This document shows, piece after piece, positions 542-47,987 of a DNA stretch of 50,701 nt. Origin of the DNA: Bacteriovoracia bacterium (GTDB lineage Bacteria; Bdellovibrionota; Bacteriovoracia; Bacteriovoracales; Bacteriovoracaceae). The notes under the pieces are model-generated. The model searched no databases. It was not told the DNA's origin and saw nothing but the letters and a program-made list of their open reading frames with translations. How positions within the stretch are numbered: position 1 is the stretch's first letter; each line of letters opens with the position of its first letter. The position numbers and the translations under genes were made by a program. Location of the stretch: assembly GCA_046570105.1 (NCBI GenBank), contig JBKHVI010000015.1:1-50701 (forward strand). Reading direction: 5' to 3'.

Positions 542-1761
542 CATGGTTTTAAAAGGGTAGCAAAATCCATGGGAGACTCCAAGGGAAGACTCCAGGTCCA
601 AGTGAGTCCTGTTTCACAATCAAGTATCGCCCAGCCACTGGAGACACGGCGCCATGCATACTCAATCCCTTGAGTTTTGAGTTGAATCACAGATGTACGC
701 GCCAGTTCCTGACAATCTTTGCCAGTTATCAAACTGAGTATTTCAAAAGTTTGCGCTGTTTGCATAAAACGAGTCAGCGCTTTACTCGCCTCTGATTCAA
801 CCGTTACTTGCTGCTTATTTTCGACAATCTCTGGCTTCACGCCAGGCTCGCCAAGTACCATCGAAAACGACTTACTGACTAAGCGCTCAGGGAAGCGGCC
901 AATGAATTCACTGCTCTCTTGATCGAGGGGATAGGCTTTTTTCAGATGGGGCAACCAGACATAGATCAAATCTAAATTGGGATGTTCATAAAACTCCCAA
1001 GAGATTTTAGCTCCATTATGCAAAGTAAAAAACCATGGTTGGATTTTGCTTTTTTTAAGTGGAGCTTGATTGAGAATATTGCCTTTCACTTTCAAAGATT
1101 GCAGACCTGCCAAAAAAGCATTCATGGCAGCCTTGCCCCAAGGTCTTTTACTTAACACCAGTGAATCGAGTTTCAGTTCACCTTTTTCCCAATTGAGAAA
1201 CTGTGCAAATTGTAAGAGAGGCAAGAGACGCTCTTCGCGCCAGCGATCTTCAGGATATAACAGCAGATCTCGAAGCCTTTGGTATTTTGATTGCAGCAAA
1301 ACTTTTTCTTCATCGGCCATGGCAAAAGAGCCCATGGCACGCAAATCGACGACATAAACATTCGGATCACCCACGAGACCCAGAAAAAAACTATCTCCTG
1401 ACGGGGCCATACTTCCCCATTCAAATGTTTGATCATCTACTGAGAATTTTAAACCTTCACCAAAGAACTCATTGCGATCAGGAGCATCGGAAATAACCCG
1501 TGCAATTGTAAGCGATTCAAGTGAGCGATGAAGTTCTTCTAAGACTTCAGCGCGAGCGATCTCACCACTACCGGTACGCCAAACTCCCTCACTCATAGTC
1601 AATTCTGCAGCAGGAAGATTAAACTTCTGAGGATTTTGCAAACTTTTGGCCATTACTTTTTCGAGATTAGATTTTTTGTCCATCCAACCACTCTCGGTAA
1701 GCACCCAGGTCAGAGTAAGTAGCAAACCTAAAATGCCGACCAAAAGCAAAATCTTTTTCAT
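541..1761 (-). CDS. Membrane-anchored protein, DUF4340-like accessory of the Gld-type ABC operon
   Basis: 406-aa ORF, N-terminal TM segment, 4-nt overlap with the GldG-like gene; family call rests mainly on gene context. Confidence 0.55.
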   Translation of the reverse strand: MKKILLLVGILGLLLTLTWVLTESGWMDKKSNLEKVMAKSLQNPQKFNLPAAELTMSEGVWRTGSGEIARAEVLEELHRSLESLTIARVISDAPDRNEFFGEGLKFSVDDQTFEWGSMAPSGDSFFLGLVGDPNVYVVDLRAMGSFAMADEEKVLLQSKYQRLRDLLLYPEDRWREERLLPLLQFAQFLNWEKGELKLDSLVLSKRPWGKAAMNAFLAGLQSLKVKGNILNQAPLKKSKIQPWFFTLHNGAKISWEFYEHPNLDLIYVWLPHLKKAYPLDQESSEFIGRFPERLVSKSFSMVLGEPGVKPEIVENKQQVTVESEASKALTRFMQTAQTFEILSLITGKDCQELARTSVIQLKTQGIEYAWRRVSSGWAILDCETGLTWTWSLPLESPMDFATLLKP

Positions 1762-3314
1762 AGGCGACGACGACGGCGGTAAACTAAGACCGCTAGAATG
1801 AAAGCAATAAGTGGAATACTTAAAACTGTGACGACAAAGACAAAACGCAAATGCGGCGTACTTAAAATGACCGGTTCATGTGTCAGCCCTGGACGATTAA
1901 GGGTCAAGAGTCCCTCTTCATGAGCAAGCCAGCTCATAATATTTAAAACGAAATTCATATTGGCAGTTTGATTTTGGTACGCATTACGAATGAACACATC
2001 ATTACCAATCACTGCTACACGAGTATCTTTTTCTTTTGTGTTTTCTGTAATTCTCTCGGCCACCATGGCAACGCCAATGGGCCCTTTCTTATCGAGCTTT
2101 TCATCAAAGTTCGCTTTACCTTGAGAGATGGCCGCTAAATCACGTTCCGCCCAGCTACCAGGATAATCAGAAGTCTGGGCAAGAGTTGTTACCGCCACAT
2201 TTTGATAAAGCGGTAACACTGCTTCAAGTGATGAGCTCAGAGGAAAAATAGTGCGGGAATGAAAGCCACGGGTAATCGGATGATTGGCAGAATATTTAGA
2301 GATCACCGGAATAGTGGCTTCATTTGACTCTAGCGTTGAGAGACGATCAATCACCAGATCATTAAATGATTGAATTCCCCATTTCACTAACAGAGCTCGC
2401 AAGTCTTTTTGGTGATCCTGTTGAAAGTTAGGTGAATAAGCAAAAAGCAGACTTCCGCCCTTTTCAAGCCAGCGCTGCAATCGCTGAATTTCTTGGGGCA
2501 AAATCCCTGCGACTGGTCCCCAAATAATGACGACATCTGCATCCAGTGGAATCTCAGCCGAGCGCTGAAGATCAAGCGGGAGTGCAATAAAGTTCTGTGA
2601 CTTTAAATGAGCACAAAAAGCCGAAAGTCCTTCTTCTCGAATATTGTCACAAGTCGCCTCACCGTGCGCACTTATAAAATAAGCACGCGTTTGTCTTTCA
2701 CGAATAATTTTCAGAAGAGCATTGGTAACACTTAACTCATCTTGCAAAGCAAAACTGATTCGTTTGCCGCCACCTTCAACCACCACTGTGCCGTGATCGT
2801 TTACGCCAGCAGCACGCGCCGCTTGCGGACGCGTTTCAGGATCAATCGCTTCTAAGACGATATCTCTGCGTACATCGCGGAAGAGACGCAAAAGTGCCAT
2901 GGCACGCGTCCACTCGGCTCTACGAGCATAGAGAGTCATCTTAGTATCGGCCGGCAATTGCTCAATAATTTTTTGACTCTGATCAGAAAGTGTATTGAGC
3001 GAGCGCTCAGTCATATCGACTTGGAAAGGAAATTTCCAGGCCAAGAAAGTGACTAAGCCCGTAATACAACAAACCAGAAAAAATTGTGTGAGTTGGATAA
3101 AACTCGCTCGTCCTTGACGACTTTTAAGCCAAGTGACCACCCCAACGCGGCGAGGGTAAAATAAAATCCCACCGAGAAGAATGGTAAATACCGTTACACT
3201 TAAGTTAAGCACCAAGTGTTCAGGGGCGACTAACCACAAAGTCATAGTTGAGAGAAGTAACAGGCCTTCAGCAATGACCCACAAACTGTACCACCAGCGA
3301 TTCATACGGCTCAC
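1758..3314 (-). CDS. GldG-like ABC transporter auxiliary component
   Basis: 518 aa; DMTERSLNTLSDQS, SAHGE, HPITRG and N-x-NFVLNIMSWL motifs; N- and C-terminal TM segments. Confidence 0.8.
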   Translation of the reverse strand: MSRMNRWWYSLWVIAEGLLLLSTMTLWLVAPEHLVLNLSVTVFTILLGGILFYPRRVGVVTWLKSRQGRASFIQLTQFFLVCCITGLVTFLAWKFPFQVDMTERSLNTLSDQSQKIIEQLPADTKMTLYARRAEWTRAMALLRLFRDVRRDIVLEAIDPETRPQAARAAGVNDHGTVVVEGGGKRISFALQDELSVTNALLKIIRERQTRAYFISAHGEATCDNIREEGLSAFCAHLKSQNFIALPLDLQRSAEIPLDADVVIIWGPVAGILPQEIQRLQRWLEKGGSLLFAYSPNFQQDHQKDLRALLVKWGIQSFNDLVIDRLSTLESNEATIPVISKYSANHPITRGFHSRTIFPLSSSLEAVLPLYQNVAVTTLAQTSDYPGSWAERDLAAISQGKANFDEKLDKKGPIGVAMVAERITENTKEKDTRVAVIGNDVFIRNAYQNQTANMNFVLNIMSWLAHEEGLLTLNRPGLTHEPVILSTPHLRFVFVVTVLSIPLIAFILAVLVYRRRRRL

Positions 3315-14811: not shown

Positions 14812-14822
14812 GACATTTTTTT

Positions 14823-14898
14823 GCTAGGGGTGCTGCGAGTAATCGTGGCTGAGACAAACCCTTCGAACCTGAAAGAGATAATGCTCGCGCAGGGAAGC
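14823..14898 (+). ncRNA. TPP (THI-box) riboswitch
   Basis: GGGGTGC...GCTGAGA...ACCCTTCGAACCTGA-AAGAG-ATAATG-CTC-GCGCAGGGAAG matches the conserved TPP aptamer core. Confidence 0.92.
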
Positions 14899-14900
14899 TT

Positions 14901-16892
14901 ATGACACTTCTACTCTATTTTATTTTATTCTTCTCTCCCGCACTGGCGCAGGAGCTACTCGCGCCTATTGATGTGAATGAAGCTGCAATCGACTTATCAA
15001 GTTCGACCGGTTTCTCTGGAGCACCACAGACGGCGCCACTCTCGACCGCTAGTTACTCACAAACAGAAATGCGCACCTATGGAGTTGAGCGTCTCTCCGA
15101 TCTCACTCGTCTCGATGCCGCATTAACAGAGAGCTATAGTGCCGGTGGATACTGGGACATACTTTCTCTGCGAGGTTTGCCATTAGACAATCGCGCCAAC
15201 TATCTGCGGGAAGGTCTGCCTATAAGTGCCGAAACCGCCATCCCGTTAGATAATAAAGAGCGTGTTGATATCATCAAGGGCCCCGCCGGGATTACCAGTG
15301 GCGCACCTACTCCTGCCGGACTTATTCACTTCCAAGTGAAAAGGCCCTCATCCAAGAAGTTCTCCCAACTAAGTCTTTCCTGGAGTGAAGCGAATCAACA
15401 GCTCTTGGGTCTTGAAACCAATCGTCCCCTATCAGATAAACTCACCACTCGACTTCAGGCGGTCTTAGAAAAAATTAATCCTTTAATAGAAAACTCTAAA
15501 GGTGAAAGATATCTTATGGCCGGGGCCCTCGATTATCGCAGGAGTTCGCGCTCCCTGTGGCAGTTTGAAGTGGAGGCTTCAAAACAAGCACGGCCGAGTG
15601 TCGCTGGTTTCTCGCTCGAAGGTAATAAGCTGCCTTCGGTTCCAGATATGCGTCGTAACCTTAATCAGCAAGACTGGAGTAGGCCCGTTGAATTCAAGGC
15701 GCTCACCAGTACATTAAAAAATACGACCTCTCTATCAGATAATATTCTTCTTACCACAACCCTAGGCATTCAACATTTAAGGAATGATGATTTTCTGGCC
15801 TACCCCTATGGATGCGACAAAGAAGGTCGTTATGATCGCTATTGCAGTGATGGCACCTTTGATGTTTATGACTATCGTAGTGAGAATGAAAGAAGACGAA
15901 CAACAGCTGCGCGAATCGCCTTAGAGGGAAGCGGCTCAGTTTTAAACTTAGAAAGACAATGGAATATGGGGGCACTTTGGAGCCAACGTTCCGAGCGCTA
16001 TGGTAAACAGGCCTATAATTATGCTGGCGAGGGAAATACCGCTGGTGATTTTGATCTCCCGGCCAATCCCAGTAAAGATGACCAGAATACAAATCGTGAT
16101 TTTTTACAAAAAGAAATATTCTGGTTTGAGCAATTATCGATTAAGAATTGGCATCTCAACACCAAATTAAGTCTTCATGACGTAGATCGCACCAGTGAGC
16201 GCACTGACCGCTCCGAGAAAACACAATCCCAAGATAAATTCACTCTCCCCTGGATAGCTATTTCTCATCAAGGGAGATTTACCAGTTATATGAGCTATGG
16301 CCAAGGCAGCGAACTTTTTATGACTCCTAACCGGAGTGATTATAATAGAGCAGGAAAAAGCCTTGAGAGAGCGCGCTCTGAGCAGTGGGAGCTGGGAATA
16401 AAAACGCAGCGATGGTCACTGACGGCATTTTACCTAAAGCGTCCCTCTCTACGTGATGAGGCGCCACTTTATGAATTAAGTGGATACTTTCTTCAAAAAG
16501 GGTTGGAGGCCAGCACGCTTTTAGAATGGAATAAATTCTCTTGGCAGCAATCAGCAATGATTGTGCGTATCGATCGATCTGATAGTCTCAAGGTGACTAA
16601 CGTTCCTCAATACACCTGGAGATCTCATCTCGGATATAAATGGAAAGATGAATCATTGCTTACATTAAGCACCATCTATGAGGGGGAGCGAGAGATTGAG
16701 ACCCATGGGCAAACTCAACTCGCCGCATGGGTTCGTTGGGATATGAGTCTCAATTATAAAAGCTGGCTTCTGCGAATTGAGAATATTTTTGCCAACAGGT
16801 ACTGGAGAGAATCCCCCACTCAATACGGGCACATCTACCTCTATCCAGGCATTCAGCGACGAATGAGCTTAAGTTGGAGTCACCAATGGTAA
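14901..16892 (+). CDS. TonB-dependent outer-membrane receptor, probably for thiamine or a precursor
   Basis: Signal peptide, plug motifs LRG and ERVDIIKGP, ENIFANRYW, terminal Trp; directly downstream of the TPP riboswitch. Confidence 0.85.
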   Translation: MTLLLYFILFFSPALAQELLAPIDVNEAAIDLSSSTGFSGAPQTAPLSTASYSQTEMRTYGVERLSDLTRLDAALTESYSAGGYWDILSLRGLPLDNRANYLREGLPISAETAIPLDNKERVDIIKGPAGITSGAPTPAGLIHFQVKRPSSKKFSQLSLSWSEANQQLLGLETNRPLSDKLTTRLQAVLEKINPLIENSKGERYLMAGALDYRRSSRSLWQFEVEASKQARPSVAGFSLEGNKLPSVPDMRRNLNQQDWSRPVEFKALTSTLKNTTSLSDNILLTTTLGIQHLRNDDFLAYPYGCDKEGRYDRYCSDGTFDVYDYRSENERRRTTAARIALEGSGSVLNLERQWNMGALWSQRSERYGKQAYNYAGEGNTAGDFDLPANPSKDDQNTNRDFLQKEIFWFEQLSIKNWHLNTKLSLHDVDRTSERTDRSEKTQSQDKFTLPWIAISHQGRFTSYMSYGQGSELFMTPNRSDYNRAGKSLERARSEQWELGIKTQRWSLTAFYLKRPSLRDEAPLYELSGYFLQKGLEASTLLEWNKFSWQQSAMIVRIDRSDSLKVTNVPQYTWRSHLGYKWKDESLLTLSTIYEGEREIETHGQTQLAAWVRWDMSLNYKSWLLRIENIFANRYWRESPTQYGHIYLYPGIQRRMSLSWSHQW

Positions 16893-37189: not shown

Positions 37190-39232
37190 CTAGAGATCTG
37201 GTGGGTCAATAGCGTCAGCACATGCGTCTGGTGCATTAGGATCGAAGCTTGGATTTAGCCCTGGCGGAGGTGGCTGACAGACACCGGCACGGCAGTCACC
37301 AAATTCTTGTGAGTTGTAACAGCGCTTAGCACAAGTGATATTTCCTTGAGGGTCAGTACCCGTTTTCACAATATAGCAGTTAGTCACGTTGGACTTCTGA
37401 CACCATTCTTTAGCAATACAGAATTGCCCATACGGCTTGTTACACAAGACCGGTGGATCAAGACGATTGTCATGAACACTGCATCGGCCAGTTGAGGTAT
37501 TACAGCATAAGCTTGAACACTCAAAATCAGACGCACAAGCGGCACCAATCGGAGAATTCCCCACCGTCGGTGCTTGCTCTACACATTGAGTAACTAAATC
37601 AGTACTCCAACAACGTTGGTTATAACAACACTCGCCGCTGCCACACTGATTTGAATTGCTGCAAGATTTGAAATTGCTATAAAGATACTCTTGGTTTTCA
37701 CCAGAAATTTGCGTTGGACGCACTAACTGCAAAATAACCTCTTTGGTTTCTGCCATGACAATGTCGACACCCTCATCATTGGTGGCGAGAATTTCAATTT
37801 TTCCTGAAGCATTACATGAACCGATGTGCTCACCTTGGAAGTTCACACTTTGCACGCGAAGGTTACAGCCATCGACTAACTCAGTGGCACCACCTGATGC
37901 TTGTGTCGCGACATCTTTCGTATTGAGATTGGCCTGCTCAGTTTTCAGATACTTCACGTTCGTTGGCAGATCCATATAGGAGAAGCGCGGGAATTGTTTT
38001 GAGATACTCAAAGCTGCCGAGTCCATTTTAGTTGCAAATGAACTACCCGGCATAACCATCTCTAGGGCCGAGAGCGGTGAATCAGATTCAAATAGACCAT
38101 ATGGGCTGAAGACAGCTTCACCCGTCACTTCCCAATTGGCCGCGTTGATCGGCTTAAATGGACCATGGTACTTGAGTGCCTGAGTGAACAGTGCGGTTCC
38201 GCCGGCATCACGAAGTACGAGATTTTTTTGCTGATTGAATAATTCAAAGAATAGATCTTCTACACCAGTGGCCGACGTGGCATTGGAAACACCGCTGGCA
38301 ATCCAAGTCACAGGATAAGTCGGAGAACCCACTTGCTTATCTGGCAAACAGCGATTCATCAAAGTGTCTGTACTCTGATGATAGTAACCGCGCTTATCAA
38401 CGGTTAAATCGATTTGTGGTAAAGTAGGAAAGACTGTTGTTTCAGTCGCGCCACTTACACGCGTAAGTGCGCGGTCAACCACTTTGGCATAAGTATAAAG
38501 ACAGCGCTCTTCTGGATAAGCAGTCCCGTTAGCATACTTACCATCACAAGCACCTTGACCATTAAAAGTCGGATCATCTTGTAAACGTAATCCACGGCAA
38601 TAAAGATGCGGATCACGGTTAGTTTCTACCGGATCAGCAATTGTGGTCGGATCAAGCGGATCAGTCGGTTCGTAATCACGATAGTCGTACAAATCATAAA
38701 TCAAACGTTGGTCATCAAATGGTTTATTTCGCAGATCCATGACGAGCACATCAATCTCAGTATTCGGTGTAATACCCGGCGCGCGTGCGACTGTCGCAGG
38801 TACCGTCACTTGTTCACGTGAAACACCAAAGGTGAAGCGTACTTTCACGAAACGATTCTGGAGTGAGTTGATGTTGATCCCACCTAAGTACAACAGACCT
38901 TGGTAGTTTTTTGGAAGAGTCAGTTTACGAACATAGGAGCCAGCACCCGAGAGACCGGTGCCGGTATAATAACTTGGATAATCACCTGTCGTGATTTTAG
39001 GTTCGACGAGATTTCTGATTTCAACTTTCGGAGCAACAGCAGTCGCACCACCACTTGAGCCTGAAGTGGTGCCCACACCTACTCCACCACCCGCCCCTGA
39101 AGTCGTACCAGGTGCTACGACTGAGCCCGGCAACTGTCGATTGGGAACTGTTTCGGAAATACACGCGGAAAGACCCAAGCACATGGCCAGCATCGTTGCG
39201 GTATGTTTGAAAGAGTTTTTCCAGAATTCCAA
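37190..39232 (-). CDS. Large lipoprotein with Gly/Thr linker and Cys-rich C-terminal repeats
   Basis: Lipobox LSAC; repeated C-x4/5-C-x3/4-CC-x4/6-C modules; GAGGAG SD before TTG start. Confidence 0.82.
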   Translation of the reverse strand: MEFWKNSFKHTATMLAMCLGLSACISETVPNRQLPGSVVAPGTTSGAGGGVGVGTTSGSSGGATAVAPKVEIRNLVEPKITTGDYPSYYTGTGLSGAGSYVRKLTLPKNYQGLLYLGGININSLQNRFVKVRFTFGVSREQVTVPATVARAPGITPNTEIDVLVMDLRNKPFDDQRLIYDLYDYRDYEPTDPLDPTTIADPVETNRDPHLYCRGLRLQDDPTFNGQGACDGKYANGTAYPEERCLYTYAKVVDRALTRVSGATETTVFPTLPQIDLTVDKRGYYHQSTDTLMNRCLPDKQVGSPTYPVTWIASGVSNATSATGVEDLFFELFNQQKNLVLRDAGGTALFTQALKYHGPFKPINAANWEVTGEAVFSPYGLFESDSPLSALEMVMPGSSFATKMDSAALSISKQFPRFSYMDLPTNVKYLKTEQANLNTKDVATQASGGATELVDGCNLRVQSVNFQGEHIGSCNASGKIEILATNDEGVDIVMAETKEVILQLVRPTQISGENQEYLYSNFKSCSNSNQCGSGECCYNQRCWSTDLVTQCVEQAPTVGNSPIGAACASDFECSSLCCNTSTGRCSVHDNRLDPPVLCNKPYGQFCIAKEWCQKSNVTNCYIVKTGTDPQGNITCAKRCYNSQEFGDCRAGVCQPPPPGLNPSFDPNAPDACADAIDPPDL

Positions 39233-42462: not shown

Positions 42463-42945
42463 TTAGCCGGCAGTTGGATCAAGTTCGGGCTCACCCATCT
42501 TCACACTCAAATTGCCCGTTTGATCTTCTTTACCACCCAAACGGCCACCGCTATTGATGGCAAAAACATTACTGCCAGCAAATTTCACCGAATGACGGTT
42601 ACCGTGAATCATTTGCTTTTCGCCACGCTCTTCTTCTTCTTTACAGTGAATACAAAGAGTCGCTGTAGGACGAGCACTCAAGCGCGATAAACCGATTTCC
42701 GCGCCACAGTCCTCACACTCTCCGAACTGACCTGCTTGAATTTTATCAAGCGCGTATTTAACTTTCTTAAGATAGACCGAGTTGCGCGACTTCAAGCGCA
42801 GATCCATCTGCTGTTGTTTTTCCTGGGTGAAAGTATCGATCTCATCACCACCGATGATTTCGGTGAGGACGTTCTCGGTAACAAACTCTGCGCCCAAGAT
42901 ATTGAGGAACATTGTCTTGAAACCTTCGATCTGTGACTTCTCCAT
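42463..42945 (-). CDS. TraR/DksA-family C4 zinc-finger protein
   Basis: GDEID coiled-coil tip, FGECEDCGAEI..RL.ARPTATLCIHCK; start moved to ATG 42945 behind a GAAGGAG SD. Confidence 0.9.
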   Translation of the reverse strand: MEKSQIEGFKTMFLNILGAEFVTENVLTEIIGGDEIDTFTQEKQQQMDLRLKSRNSVYLKKVKYALDKIQAGQFGECEDCGAEIGLSRLSARPTATLCIHCKEEEERGEKQMIHGNRHSVKFAGSNVFAINSGGRLGGKEDQTGNLSVKMGEPELDPTAG

Positions 42946-42969
42946 AACAACTCCTTCTTTTTCCATCAT

Positions 42970-43079
42970 GCCCAAATCCTTCTGGGCCTTTTTGTTTCCC
43001 CTACCAATCCTTGGCGGGGGCCAATCCTTTGGGAAGCTTCGGTGGAGATCCCTCTCCTAGAGTGTCTCATCCATGAGAC
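42970..43079 (-). promoter_or_regulatory. Array of GGA-loop hairpins in the leader (candidate CsrA/RsmA binding sites)
   Basis: GUCUCA-UGGA-UGAGAC, CUC-UAGGA-GAG, GGAGA-GGGA-UCUCC, CCAA-AGGA-UUGG, CCA-AGGAU-UGG, GCCCAGA-AGGA-UUUGGGC. Confidence 0.65.
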
Positions 43080-43104
43080 CCCCTCAGCTTCGTGCCAACA
43101 CTAG

Positions 43105-43121
43105 AGCAGGAACGATGCCAA
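43105..43121 (-). promoter_or_regulatory. Sigma54 (-24/-12) promoter candidate
   Basis: Minus strand TTGGCATCGTTCCTGCT with GG-N10-GC spacing. Confidence 0.65.
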
Positions 43122-43270
43122 GTTTGGCCTCATGAAAAAACTGGGGGTTACTCATAACGCAGGTGTCAAACAGGCCTTATACGGGCCAAAGAGACACTGG
43201 GGCAGGGACAAAAAGGTCTAACCTAAAATGACTTACAGTGAGGAATTCTAAGATGTTAGATGTCGTTTGA

Positions 43271-43561
43271 TTATGATGCGGCCCTTTTAACGACCAAATT
43301 CACACCTAATATGAGTGCCACCTTGGCAATAAAATCTAAGCTCACCTCGCTCACTAGGCCTGATTCCATGCGAGCGATAGCCGGCTGCTTTGTATGGCAA
43401 AGACTCGCTAAAACACTTTGAGATAGACCTTGAGCTTTTCGAGCTTTGATCAATTTTTCAATCATAAGTTTCTTTTGCTTAACAAGATCCATTTCCACAT
43501 CACTAAGACCTAAAAATGCACCAAACTCTTTAGCGCTTTTGAATTTGATATTTTTCTTCAT
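43271..43561 (-). CDS. XRE-family HTH antitoxin (HigA-like)
   Basis: ARKAQGLSQSVLA...TKQPAIARMESG HTH; ATGA overlap with the upstream toxin gene. Confidence 0.85.
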   Translation of the reverse strand: MKKNIKFKSAKEFGAFLGLSDVEMDLVKQKKLMIEKLIKARKAQGLSQSVLASLCHTKQPAIARMESGLVSEVSLDFIAKVALILGVNLVVKRAAS

Positions 43562-43875
43562 GCAATCCCCCTTAAGCGTTGCTTGAGTAATCGAATGGTC
43601 TGCTGTTGCATCTTTTGCGATTTTTTTACAGCAGCATGAATTACATAAATCGCTTCTTTGACCCTTATTACGTAGAAGACCCTTAACTCTCCGGACACGC
43701 CAGTTAATCTAAGTTCATTTAATCCTGGAGCAATACTTGCGAGAGATCTGGAAATTGGCATTTCAAGTTTTTTGCCTCTCGAGAGATCTTCAAAAAGTGA
43801 ATAGATATCTTCTGAAAACTCTTTAGGGCATCTCCTCAGCTCTCTTTGTGCTTGCTTGAGTACAACAATCACCAC
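43558..43875 (-). CDS. RelE/HigB-like type II toxin (Gp49-like)
   Basis: MPISRSL..GLNELR...LRVFY...IYVIHA..KKSQK pattern; toxin-first order; GTG start (43875 or 43872) behind an AAGGAG SD. Confidence 0.82.
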   Translation of the reverse strand: MVIVVLKQAQRELRRCPKEFSEDIYSLFEDLSRGKKLEMPISRSLASIAPGLNELRLTGVSGELRVFYVIRVKEAIYVIHAAVKKSQKMQQQTIRLLKQRLRGIA

Positions 43876-43890
43876 GGCAACTCCTTTAAT

Positions 43891-43906
43891 ATAACGCATT
43901 CGTTAT
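43891..43906. promoter_or_regulatory. Palindromic operator of the TA operon
   Basis: ATAACG-CATT-CGTTAT, overlapping the spacer and -10 of a minus-strand TTTACA-N17-TATATT promoter-like sequence (43888-43916). Confidence 0.6.
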
Positions 43907-44038
43907 TATATGTAAATCCTGTCCAGATAGAGTTACTGCAAGCGCGTCACCACAAAGGGACGATCTTAGATAGTCCGAATTATTGAGTTTCTTTTTTAAT
44001 TAGGAGAAATAATTCCCCGGGTTGGGGAAATTTTTGGA

Positions 44039-44758
44039 CTAGCTAAGCTGAGAGAGATTTTCCTGAAAGCCTTGATACATTTTCGCGAAAGAGAATCCGC
44101 GTTTAATCACTTCATCGCGCACGCCGAGACCACGCAATAAGAAACGAGTGAGATTGGTCAGACGCTCCCGTTCAGTTTCCCAACTCACCATCAGGTGAGG
44201 ACGAGAAGCTTCCGTGAGGGCGAGCGAGAGCATCTGACCAAACGCCAGCCACAAAGTTTCGTCGGAGACCTCTTCTGTATGAAGGTCTCCGGCGGAACAT
44301 GCGGCCTCATAAGACATCATCCACCACGGCAGGAGGGTGTGGGCGAAATGCTCTTGGTGAAAACGCAATGGTCCTTCGGTTTCGAAGAGACCGTGACCCA
44401 AGAGCCGCAGGATTTGCGGATGTCGTGGTACTGACTCCAAAGAGCCAGGGCGACGTCCGAGGGTAATTCCCCAAACCAACATGCCGGTGATGAACAAGAA
44501 GTGACCCGTCGAAGGCGTGGGCCCTCGAACAAAAGATTCCCAGGCATGGAAAGGAAAGCGATGAAGACGCTTAACTTCCATCCAAAGATCATCCTTTGAT
44601 TGGAAATGACGATAAAGAATTGGTTCGGTGATGAGCAGTCGCTGCGAGAGTTCGCGAGTGGTAACTCCATAATATCCGCGCTCGGCGAACATCTGTGAAG
44701 CTATCTCTAAAATCTGTGAACGCCGATCCTCGGCCTTCATACGGATCTTCTGTGTCAT
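44039..44758 (-). CDS. TetR/AcrR-family transcriptional regulator
   Basis: RRSQILEIASQMFAERGYYGVTTRELS...LYRHFQSKDDL HTH. Confidence 0.9.
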   Translation of the reverse strand: MTQKIRMKAEDRRSQILEIASQMFAERGYYGVTTRELSQRLLITEPILYRHFQSKDDLWMEVKRLHRFPFHAWESFVRGPTPSTGHFLFITGMLVWGITLGRRPGSLESVPRHPQILRLLGHGLFETEGPLRFHQEHFAHTLLPWWMMSYEAACSAGDLHTEEVSDETLWLAFGQMLSLALTEASRPHLMVSWETERERLTNLTRFLLRGLGVRDEVIKRGFSFAKMYQGFQENLSQLS

Positions 44759-46814: not shown

Positions 46815-47553
46815 TTCCGGAAAAACGATAAGAGTTCTTTATGTTCAGGTGAATAAAATCACCTGGTGTAGGCTCGATATAAATTTCGTCTTTTTTCCCA
46901 GGAACTAACTTCAGCGAATTATTTCCACCTGTTCCTCGCTTGTTGGAATAGAGCTTTCCGCTGGGATCATAAATGAGAATTTCTACTTCACCCTCAAGAC
47001 TATTTTTTTCACCCACTACAAAATTCACATTCATCACAATGCGATCTTCTCGACCTTTATTCTTCCCTTCGTGACTAAGAATCCCAGTGTAGCTGCCATT
47101 TATCCGACGGATCTGTGGAGTCATCTTGCGGGCATAAGGTGCTTTGGCGTAATTGACTAGATTCTGTACTGACTTCTGCGCAGGAAGACTCGCCTCTGCA
47201 TTTTTAACTTCGGCTTTCGCGGCCATGAGTTTCGCTAACTCGACTTGTTCACTCACTTTCACCGCTTCTTGCGGAGCAATTTCTTTCACAATCGGTTCAC
47301 CTAAATTCGCTACCGGCGCATCACCACTCACGCGATTGGCAAGACTGGCGAGAAATAGCACAACGGCTTTGCCGTAATACTCTTCGGCAGCTTTAAGTTG
47401 TTCTTCGCGAGGAAGCTCACTGATTTGATCAGCGCCTTTCTGTGCCCACACTCGTGACTCTTCCGTTTTCTGGGCTTCTGGTGCTGAACGAAACATCGCC
47501 GAGCCTAAGACTCCAATGATAAAACCAAAAACGAGGAGGCCCCAGGTTTTCAA
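46759..47553 (-). CDS. Membrane-anchored hypothetical protein
   Basis: 264 aa, N-terminal hydrophobic segment, TTG start overlapping the upstream stop. Confidence 0.75.
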   Translation of the reverse strand: MKTWGLLVFGFIIGVLGSAMFRSAPEAQKTEESRVWAQKGADQISELPREEQLKAAEEYYGKAVVLFLASLANRVSGDAPVANLGEPIVKEIAPQEAVKVSEQVELAKLMAAKAEVKNAEASLPAQKSVQNLVNYAKAPYARKMTPQIRRINGSYTGILSHEGKNKGREDRIVMNVNFVVGEKNSLEGEVEILIYDPSGKLYSNKRGTGGNNSLKLVPGKKDEIYIEPTPGDFIHLNIKNSYRFSGKYFDSTGKDMGKVVLRRN

Positions 47554-47987
47554 ACGTATTTCTCACTTTTTGATTTAGAAAGAACGATTTCGCCCTTCTC
47601 TTTCATTTTCAAAACCACATCCATGATTCGGCGTTGAGCTTCCATCACTTCATTTAAAGGCTTGGGTTTTCCTTTGAGAAGCTCATCCACATCGGCGCGA
47701 TTGTTTTTTGATAACAAAGTGAGAATATGATTTTTCACTTCTAAGGATGATCCGCGCAAAGCGAGACCCCAATCGTTGATATGTGTCTCAGGCCAGAGCT
47801 TCGCCATCATGGCGATGGTTAAATACTGAAGATCATCAAACGTCGTAAGACTGGCTTTCAAACGAATCGCCATCTCAGGATCTTGGCGCGCGATATCCGA
47901 GAGAATATTTTGTTGTTGTGCAAGATCAAGGTGCTGCAGCATCTCAAGGGCGGCCTTGAATCCATCGATTTTTTTTCCGCCTGCCAT
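47550..47987 (-). CDS. Stand-alone FliG C-terminal domain protein
   Basis: DPEMAIRLKASLTTFDDL, LALRG and EVMEAQRRIMDVVLKMKEKGEI resemble FliG-C. Confidence 0.75.
   Translation of the reverse strand: MAGGKKIDGFKAALEMLQHLDLAQQQNILSDIARQDPEMAIRLKASLTTFDDLQYLTIAMMAKLWPETHINDWGLALRGSSLEVKNHILTLLSKNNRADVDELLKGKPKPLNEVMEAQRRIMDVVLKMKEKGEIVLSKSKSEKYV

Follow-up and report, generated by a model that had tools for sequence, protein, structure and literature searches.

The window analysed here (the whole stretch of 50,701 nt) lies on contig C15 of a 3.0-Mb Bacteriovoracaceae-type MAG that is 88% complete, and the closest named kin of the DksA-like protein encoded at the locus are mostly Bacteriovoracaceae MAGs. 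On the minus strand, a gene of the DksA/TraR family is preceded by a long leader carrying GGA-loop hairpins and by a sigma-54 promoter motif. The features, in order of transcription, are as follows.

43163..43197, minus strand: candidate enhancer-binding-protein boxes of the TGRCMC type, at 43188 and 43168 (motif enrichment)
43105..43121, minus strand: sigma-54 -24/-12 promoter motif (GG 43119-43118, N10, GC 43107-43106), predicted +1 at about 43094
42946..43094, minus strand: 5' leader of 149 nt, from the predicted +1 to the start codon
43033..43091, minus strand: 5' domain, a basal stem around H1 and H2 (folding, genus consensus)
43064..43079, minus strand: hairpin H1, loop AUGGAU, GGA 43072-43070 (-5.7 kcal/mol)
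43044..43057, minus strand: hairpin H2, loop AGGGAU, GGA 43051-43049 (-5.8 kcal/mol)
43021..43032, minus strand: weak hairpin H3, AAGGAU, GGA 43027-43025 (-1.0 kcal/mol), outside the consensus structure
42997..43020, minus strand: hairpin H4, extended stem, loop AAGGAU, GGA 43010-43008 (folding, covariation)
42970..42987, minus strand: hairpin H5, loop AAGGAU, GGA 42979-42977 (-8.7 kcal/mol)
42951..42964, minus strand: GGA at 42964 and Shine-Dalgarno (SD) sequence AAGGAG (42956-42951), predicted bridging/repression sites
42463..42945, minus strand: gene of the DksA/TraR family (160 aa), with a four-Cys zinc finger and the tip DEIDTF (PF01258 above cut-off)

The start codon was assigned to the ATG at 42945 by homolog alignment; a uORF or N-terminal extension was considered and rejected, since the ATGs of the leader vary in place and frame among homologs. 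The encoded protein has the four-Cys zinc finger and the coiled-coil homology of the DksA/TraR family, and it scores under the cut-off of every NCBIfam dksA model, including the dksA equivalog models. The initial annotation had placed a DksA-type regulator downstream of the leader, which is right as to the family (PF01258); it had missed the DxxDxF tip and three further dksA-like genes with a canonical tip, which bring the paralogs of the genome to four. The search of the genome for csrA, fliW and rpoN that it had proposed found all three, csrA adjoining fliW, and the PF00158 activators gave 12 matches, six of them strong.

Several related loci share neighbours with this one (an rfaD-like gene, a FliG_C gene and htpG), and their orthology is thereby supported. 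The FliG C-terminal-domain gene stands alone behind the rfaD-like epimerase (47550-47987, minus strand) and recurs beside the family members of the clade described below. A Gp49/RelE-like gene and an HTH gene, likely a toxin-antitoxin pair, are inserted upstream of the promoter (43271-43899, minus strand); among the orthologous loci compared, the pair is shared only with genome G007, and a contig of sequencing run X20 skips 43260-44049, the region that contains it. Elsewhere, the window holds a TPP riboswitch (14816-14912, plus strand) and a Cys-rich, lipoprotein-like ORF of 680 aa with no Pfam match (37190-39232, minus strand).

The GG-N10-GC motif at 43105-43121 (minus strand) is present as first annotated and is conserved across the clade, with its TTGGCA and TGCT unchanged in 8/8 loci of the genus. 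A conserved TGGC-N9-GC motif together with rpoN and activators in the genome identifies a sigma-54 promoter at the motif level, with a predicted start. All four loci seen of one genus (L024, L109, L110, and L111) have GG in place of GC as the -12 element, with TTGGCA intact. Further upstream, the pattern TGRCMC, which was picked post hoc after inspection of the same upstream regions, occurs 61 times over 43 clade regions that lie 20-140 nt upstream of the promoter, compared to a shuffle mean of 5.6 (maximum 14 of 200) and to 0.13 per region in paralog control regions. This enrichment is as expected of an activator site, for which the two boxes are candidates.

GGA occurs at 43072, 43057, 43051, 43027, 43010, 42999, 42979, 42964, 42954 (in the SD) and 42943. 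The six GGA-loop hairpins initially described can all be drawn and five of them stand; the one at 43052-43062 proved spurious, its GGA having an unpaired probability of 0.01 (43057) and being present in only 2/8 genus leaders. In the leader ensemble, the unpaired probability of GGA is about 1.0 at 43072, 43051, 43010 and 42979, 0.43 at 43027 and 0.01 at 42999. The loops, mostly of the form A(N)GGA(U/A), are spaced by 21, 24, 17, and 31 nt, followed by 25 nt to the SD, so that several A(N)GGA hairpin loops stand at the dimer-bridging spacing of CsrA-bound leaders. The additional GGAs reported near 42962 and in the SD were located at 42964 and 42954; the latter is not itself diagnostic because every SD contains GGA. 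The SD is predicted to be unpaired with a probability of 0.94 in the leader alone versus 0.05 when 65 nt of the coding sequence are added.

Genome-wide, on both strands, the only 150-nt window with six loop GGAs is this leader, and its five ANGGAT loops compare with at most two at any other locus, so that it is the densest GGA-loop cluster of the genome. The six hairpin A(N)GGA sites of the leader were equalled by 1 of 20,000 dinucleotide shuffles. In a ranking of 2326 SD-bearing ORF leaders from a crude ORF call, in which the upstream ATG at 42969 was used as the start for this gene, it came first, with five sites versus at most three elsewhere. The folding z-score of the whole leader is modest (-2.07).

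Alignment of eight related orthologous leaders of the genus revealed that the GGAs of H1 to H4 are invariant (8/8), as are the AGGAT of H4 and the SD AAGGAG at -9/-10, and that H5 has GGA at the matching place in 7/8. Both sides had changed in 3/6 pairs of H1, in 7/9 of H4 and in 15/32 consensus pairs overall, compared to 7.2 in shuffles and at most six with the partners slid; likewise, 94.1% of the cells were paired versus 84.1 ± 1.2 in shuffled alignments, although the significance of this covariation is overstated because the structure was derived from the same eight related rows. Both the loop GGA conservation and the covariation across homologous leaders that had been named as a check were thus found, with four GGAs in 8/8 leaders and covarying stems. 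Relative to G007, the nearest genome, 3/149 bases of the leader and 14 of the 139 nt upstream of the promoter differ, with pS of 0.30 at synonymous sites of the gene and a dN/dS of 0.057. The few leader differences and the low dN/dS therefore indicate that RNA and protein are both under purifying selection.

At the family level, where the leaders are too divergent for alignment, motif counts were compared between dksA-like genes of related genomes grouped by a protein tree, independently of the leader; L004-L008, L010 and L108 (duplicates), L021 (contig starting inside the gene) and L012 (a long-branch Myxococcota row) were left out of the counts. The tree of 75 rows set one clade apart (support 98/97), with 29 members without the Myxococcota row. 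TGGC-N9-GC was found at -230 to -60 in 28/29 clade members versus 0/43 other paralogs, and the mean number of hairpin A(N)GGA sites at -136 to -17 was 3.45 in the clade (n = 29) versus 0.33 in the paralogs (n = 43), with clade controls of 0.17 (antisense) and 0.94 (dinucleotide shuffles; maximum 1.59 of 200). A held-out set was obtained with a protein HMM over 251 genomes of the phylum, in which 60 regions were taken at high-ranking matches from the 150 matches listed of 733. Among the matches listed, 24 new family members joined the same clade (53 rows, support 99), of which 18 had the strict sigma-54 motif, 22 the relaxed motif, and 20 at least two hairpin sites. In total, including the matches listed, the strict sigma-54 motif was present in 46/53 clade members versus 0/39 other paralogs, and two or more hairpin A(N)GGA sites in 48/53 versus 2/39; as kin are not independent, the clade figures are counts rather than statistical tests. 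These counts showed that the predicted promoter with its putative GGA-hairpin leader marks one clade of dksA paralogs.

Within the family, leader length and site number differ, with 0-6 sites and only 1-2 in some members. The clade gene is seemingly absent from some family genomes, several complete ones giving only low HMM scores, and csrA was detected in 35/36 relatives. A promoter-plus-hairpin leader was found at 0/13 dksA-like genes in five genomes of three other families (f9, f6, and f13).

The encoded protein also departs from canonical DksA, of which an intact DxxDxA tip is a feature (PMC4010833). Its tip DEIDTF (codons 34-39, 42846-42829) aligns to residues 71-76 of E. coli DksA (1tjl), with Phe in place of the Ala of DxxDxA. 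Counting rows that include the matches listed, the tip Ala is present in 14/53 clade members and replaced in 39/53, versus kept in 39/39 other paralogs; both tip aspartates are present in 48/53 clade members, and the four cysteines in 29/29. Clade proteins were less alike than a paralog pair of the same genomes in 11/13 comparisons. In Rhodobacter DksA, an Ala-to-Thr change at the tip Ala position is reported to remove most activity, and the tip residues of DksA are described as required for regulation and not for polymerase binding (PMC4010833). New here is the replacement, in most of the clade, of a tip residue on which the DksA proteins so far tested depend.

Outside the family, a group of 27 tree rows (support 83; rows including the matches listed) had the tip Ala in 0/27 and a sigma-54 motif close by in 13/27; in nine further rows of this group, a consensus-like sigma-54 site lies 277-497 nt upstream in 7/9, apparently with a short ORF between. 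The 33 paralogs neighbouring the group had Ala in 33/33 and a sigma-54 motif in one. At L128, L132, L138, L139, L140, L145 and L147, all from other families of the phylum, a sigma-54 motif precedes a tip-degenerate dksA by 277-497 nt, and between them there is apparently a short ORF and, at some loci, GGA hairpins. The B. bacteriovorus dksA Bd3519 is reported to drop on leaving attack phase (PMC2797640); its orthology with the present gene was not established and the 13 dksA-like genes of families f9, f6 and f13 lack the unit, so this behaviour should not be carried over to the present gene.

The reading favoured here, with a probability of about one half, is that the GGA-hairpin leader belongs to a sigma-54-driven mRNA of a variant dksA that would be repressed by CsrA at the SD and would also serve as a CsrA sink. 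An enhancer-binding protein would activate sigma-54 transcription from about 43094. The loops match the SELEX core of CsrA, ARGGAU, and their spacings suit dimer bridging, which makes CsrA binding likely as judged from the sequence; dimers would bind loop pairs 17-31 nt apart, inside the reported bridging range of 10-63 nt (PMC7652899). A dimer tethered at H5 would bridge to the GGA of the SD, 25 nt off, and exclude ribosomes, as at glgC. Lying 65-127 nt from the start codon, the 5' sites would be surplus to repression and could act as a sink or set a threshold, and the protein would be made only when the transcript outnumbers free CsrA or when FliW holds CsrA. The host CsrA has the RNA-binding residues, as it keeps L4 and R44 as well as, if the published numbering applies, four of the five class-I residues (K7, S11, I25, E45; V47 in place of L). 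The sink role would require a high transcript level.

An alternative is a pure cis target, in which CsrA would repress the leader cooperatively, with a transcript too rare to titrate and extra sites that sharpen repression. Such a leader would be expected to lie directly before the SD without a terminator, as is the case, and could manage with the 1-2 sites of some family members; moreover, FliW is reported as the main antagonist in C. jejuni (PMC4894983). However, conservation is best at the sites that lie farthest from the SD, and no flagellin leader of the genome has as many sites as this one; the alternative deserves serious weight and is nevertheless unlikely. The six flagellin-like genes (G000 contigs C37, C48, C35, and C18) include five whose leaders were scored, with 0, 2, 2, 3, and 2 hairpin A(N)GGA sites. 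CsrA of B. bacteriovorus is reported to repress a flagellin reporter (PMC13443453), and the 2-3 sites in four of the five leaders are as would be expected of a CsrA-FliW circuit.

The SD predicted to pair with the early coding sequence, and the location of H1 and H2 at the predicted 5' end, raise the opposite prospect that CsrA activates or stabilises the mRNA, either by protecting the 5' end against RNase E, as in flhDC, or by freeing the SD. Both modes are known for CsrA, but repression is given as its usual outcome (PMC7652899), and H5, the GGA at 42964 and the SD resemble the tether and bridge of glgC; activation is accordingly rated improbable.

The continuity of leader and gene was considered with RNA data in the form of assembled contigs of depth 2-5, with possible DNA carry-over, from which strand, ends and abundance are not derivable. 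Three lake metatranscriptome contigs cross the start codon (X1, 42830-43048; X2, 42758-43068; X12, 42867-43045) with 78 nt or more on either side, and end at 43045-43068, short of the promoter; the contig of run X20, whose kind is unrecorded, continues through it. X3 and X4 enter the leader by only 18 and 26 nt and were not counted as bridging, and X5 covers only the coding sequence. Within 19.7 kb, the RNA runs X2, X3 and X4 gave 7, 3, and 4 pieces, these runs having been chosen on this locus. The absence of a terminator between leader and gene, already noted in the initial annotation, was borne out, as no minus-strand terminator-like site was found there.

Because there is no terminator and the RNA contigs join the leader to the coding sequence, a 5' UTR is favoured over a separate sRNA. 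The earlier choice between a CsrB-like sponge in the 5' UTR and dense CsrA control thus survives in the part that makes the leader continuous with the mRNA, while a discrete RNA is disfavoured. In such a case, a CsrB/RsmY-like sRNA of about 130-150 nt would arise by processing or Rho-dependent termination, the gene being minor read-through. Its valency of 5-7 sites would fit, and the leader is the sole hit of the CsrB model at E<=1 genome-wide, yet at noise level (11.3 bits, cut-off 71). Contrary to it, besides the missing intrinsic terminator and the bridging contigs, the genus covariance model recovered in 61 genomes only its eight training loci, one per genome and always at the dksA-like gene; the chance of a discrete sRNA is hence put as low. 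Binding of the loops by another GGA-reading protein, or a purpose unrelated to CsrA, is scarcely likely: CsrA specificity is reported to differ among homologs (PMC13443453), but loop sequence, geometry and spacing suit CsrA, and csrA is near-universal in the family.

The reading as both repressed target and sink does not require a choice between sponge and target, as the two are not exclusive, because a target leader can titrate CsrA, as flaA does in C. jejuni (PMC4894983). Nor need the dksA leader be the only sink, since a sister unit exists in the same genome. A matrix scan yielded 37 sigma-54 candidates in non-coding DNA, and the sister unit (L083, G000:C51, about 560-900, minus strand) comprises a sigma-54 motif, a stretch of about 180 nt in which several GGA hairpins occur, and a conserved hydrophobic ORF of 38 codons. 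It was matched in 8/10 genus relatives, in two only partly, and was aligned in six, which suggests a small putative sigma-54/CsrA module. At L084 (G000:C99, contig coordinates about 2970-3090, minus strand), a sigma-54 motif precedes about 90 nt that hold a single GGA hairpin and a strong terminator; no ORF was seen there, making it a candidate for a small RNA that stands alone.

CsrA control in predatory Bdellovibrionota is little known, although csrA is reported to be implicated in predation (PMC13443453). As a family-wide feature, the leader is a concrete candidate for the strongest ligand of CsrA in an organism with CsrA and FliW, at a gene where three global systems (sigma-54, Csr, and DksA) would meet, and it draws attention to a naturally occurring clade of DksA proteins whose tip is relaxed and whose activity is amenable to in vitro study. 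A wider scenario may be imagined, which is doubtful at present: sigma-54-driven leaders would replace CsrB-type sRNAs, and one activator would turn on both this leader and the sister GGA-leader/peptide unit, titrating CsrA off flagellin mRNAs and, when CsrA is saturated, releasing the tip-altered DksA as an anti-DksA that competes with the three canonical paralogs in RNA polymerase's secondary channel, so that motility would be coupled to relief of stringent control at the life-cycle switch.

Among known systems, a comparable case is the flaA leader of C. jejuni (PMC4894983), which likewise has GGA loops in the 5' leader, there separated by about 21 nt, in a genome that also has csrA and fliW; the present leader would work in the same way, or as a CsrA target leader whose valency is unusual. 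No canonical Csr sRNA is given for C. jejuni in that account, which describes the flaA leader as both CsrA target and sink. With its two sites, sigma-28 promoter and flagellin product, flaA differs from the present leader, which has five hairpins, a sigma-54 motif and a gene for an RNA-polymerase factor, and for which a dual function is proposed by analogy. The leader of Salmonella fimAICDHF, as cited in the same paper, is an mRNA leader that titrates CsrA, as proposed here. CsrB/CsrC, RsmY and RsmZ (RF00018, RF00195, and RF00166) also present short stems in a row, with ANGGA in the loops; unlike them, the present leader has no terminator, has a coding sequence attached, and carries a sigma-54 motif instead of BarA-UvrY control. 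CsrB-type sRNAs are described as identified only in Gammaproteobacteria as of 2014 (PMC4333381).

Rfam searches of the leader region gave no match at gathering level, thus none to CsrB, RsmY or RsmZ, and only three chance hits at E<=10; a stand-alone gene with its own intrinsic terminator is likewise not what was found. Sub-threshold RsmY/RsmZ hits across the genome were mostly terminators behind genes, and none had a row of GGA hairpins or a sigma-54 motif. TwoAYGGAY (RF01731), a proposed CsrA binder (PMC4333381; bioRxiv 10.64898/2026.09.22.753630), resembles the 5' domain in having two GGA-loop hairpins on a common basal stem; unlike TwoAYGGAY, H2 here has AGGGAU, and the element is single-copy and tied to one gene. 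The TwoAYGGAY model had no match at E<=1 genome-wide (control genomes likewise none) and none at E<=10 at the locus. In the literature on csrA and dksA of Bdellovibrio or bacteriovora, judged mainly by listings, with few subscription papers, no published account of this leader was found. CsrA is reported to repress E. coli dksA, where its action on the dksA mRNA links Csr to the stringent response (PMC7652899), a link comparable to the one proposed here; unlike E. coli dksA, the present gene shares its genome with three paralogs and is marked by a sigma-54 motif and a changed DxxDxA tip. Taken together with these systems, the leader is a real, conserved and seemingly undescribed variant of a type of control already known.
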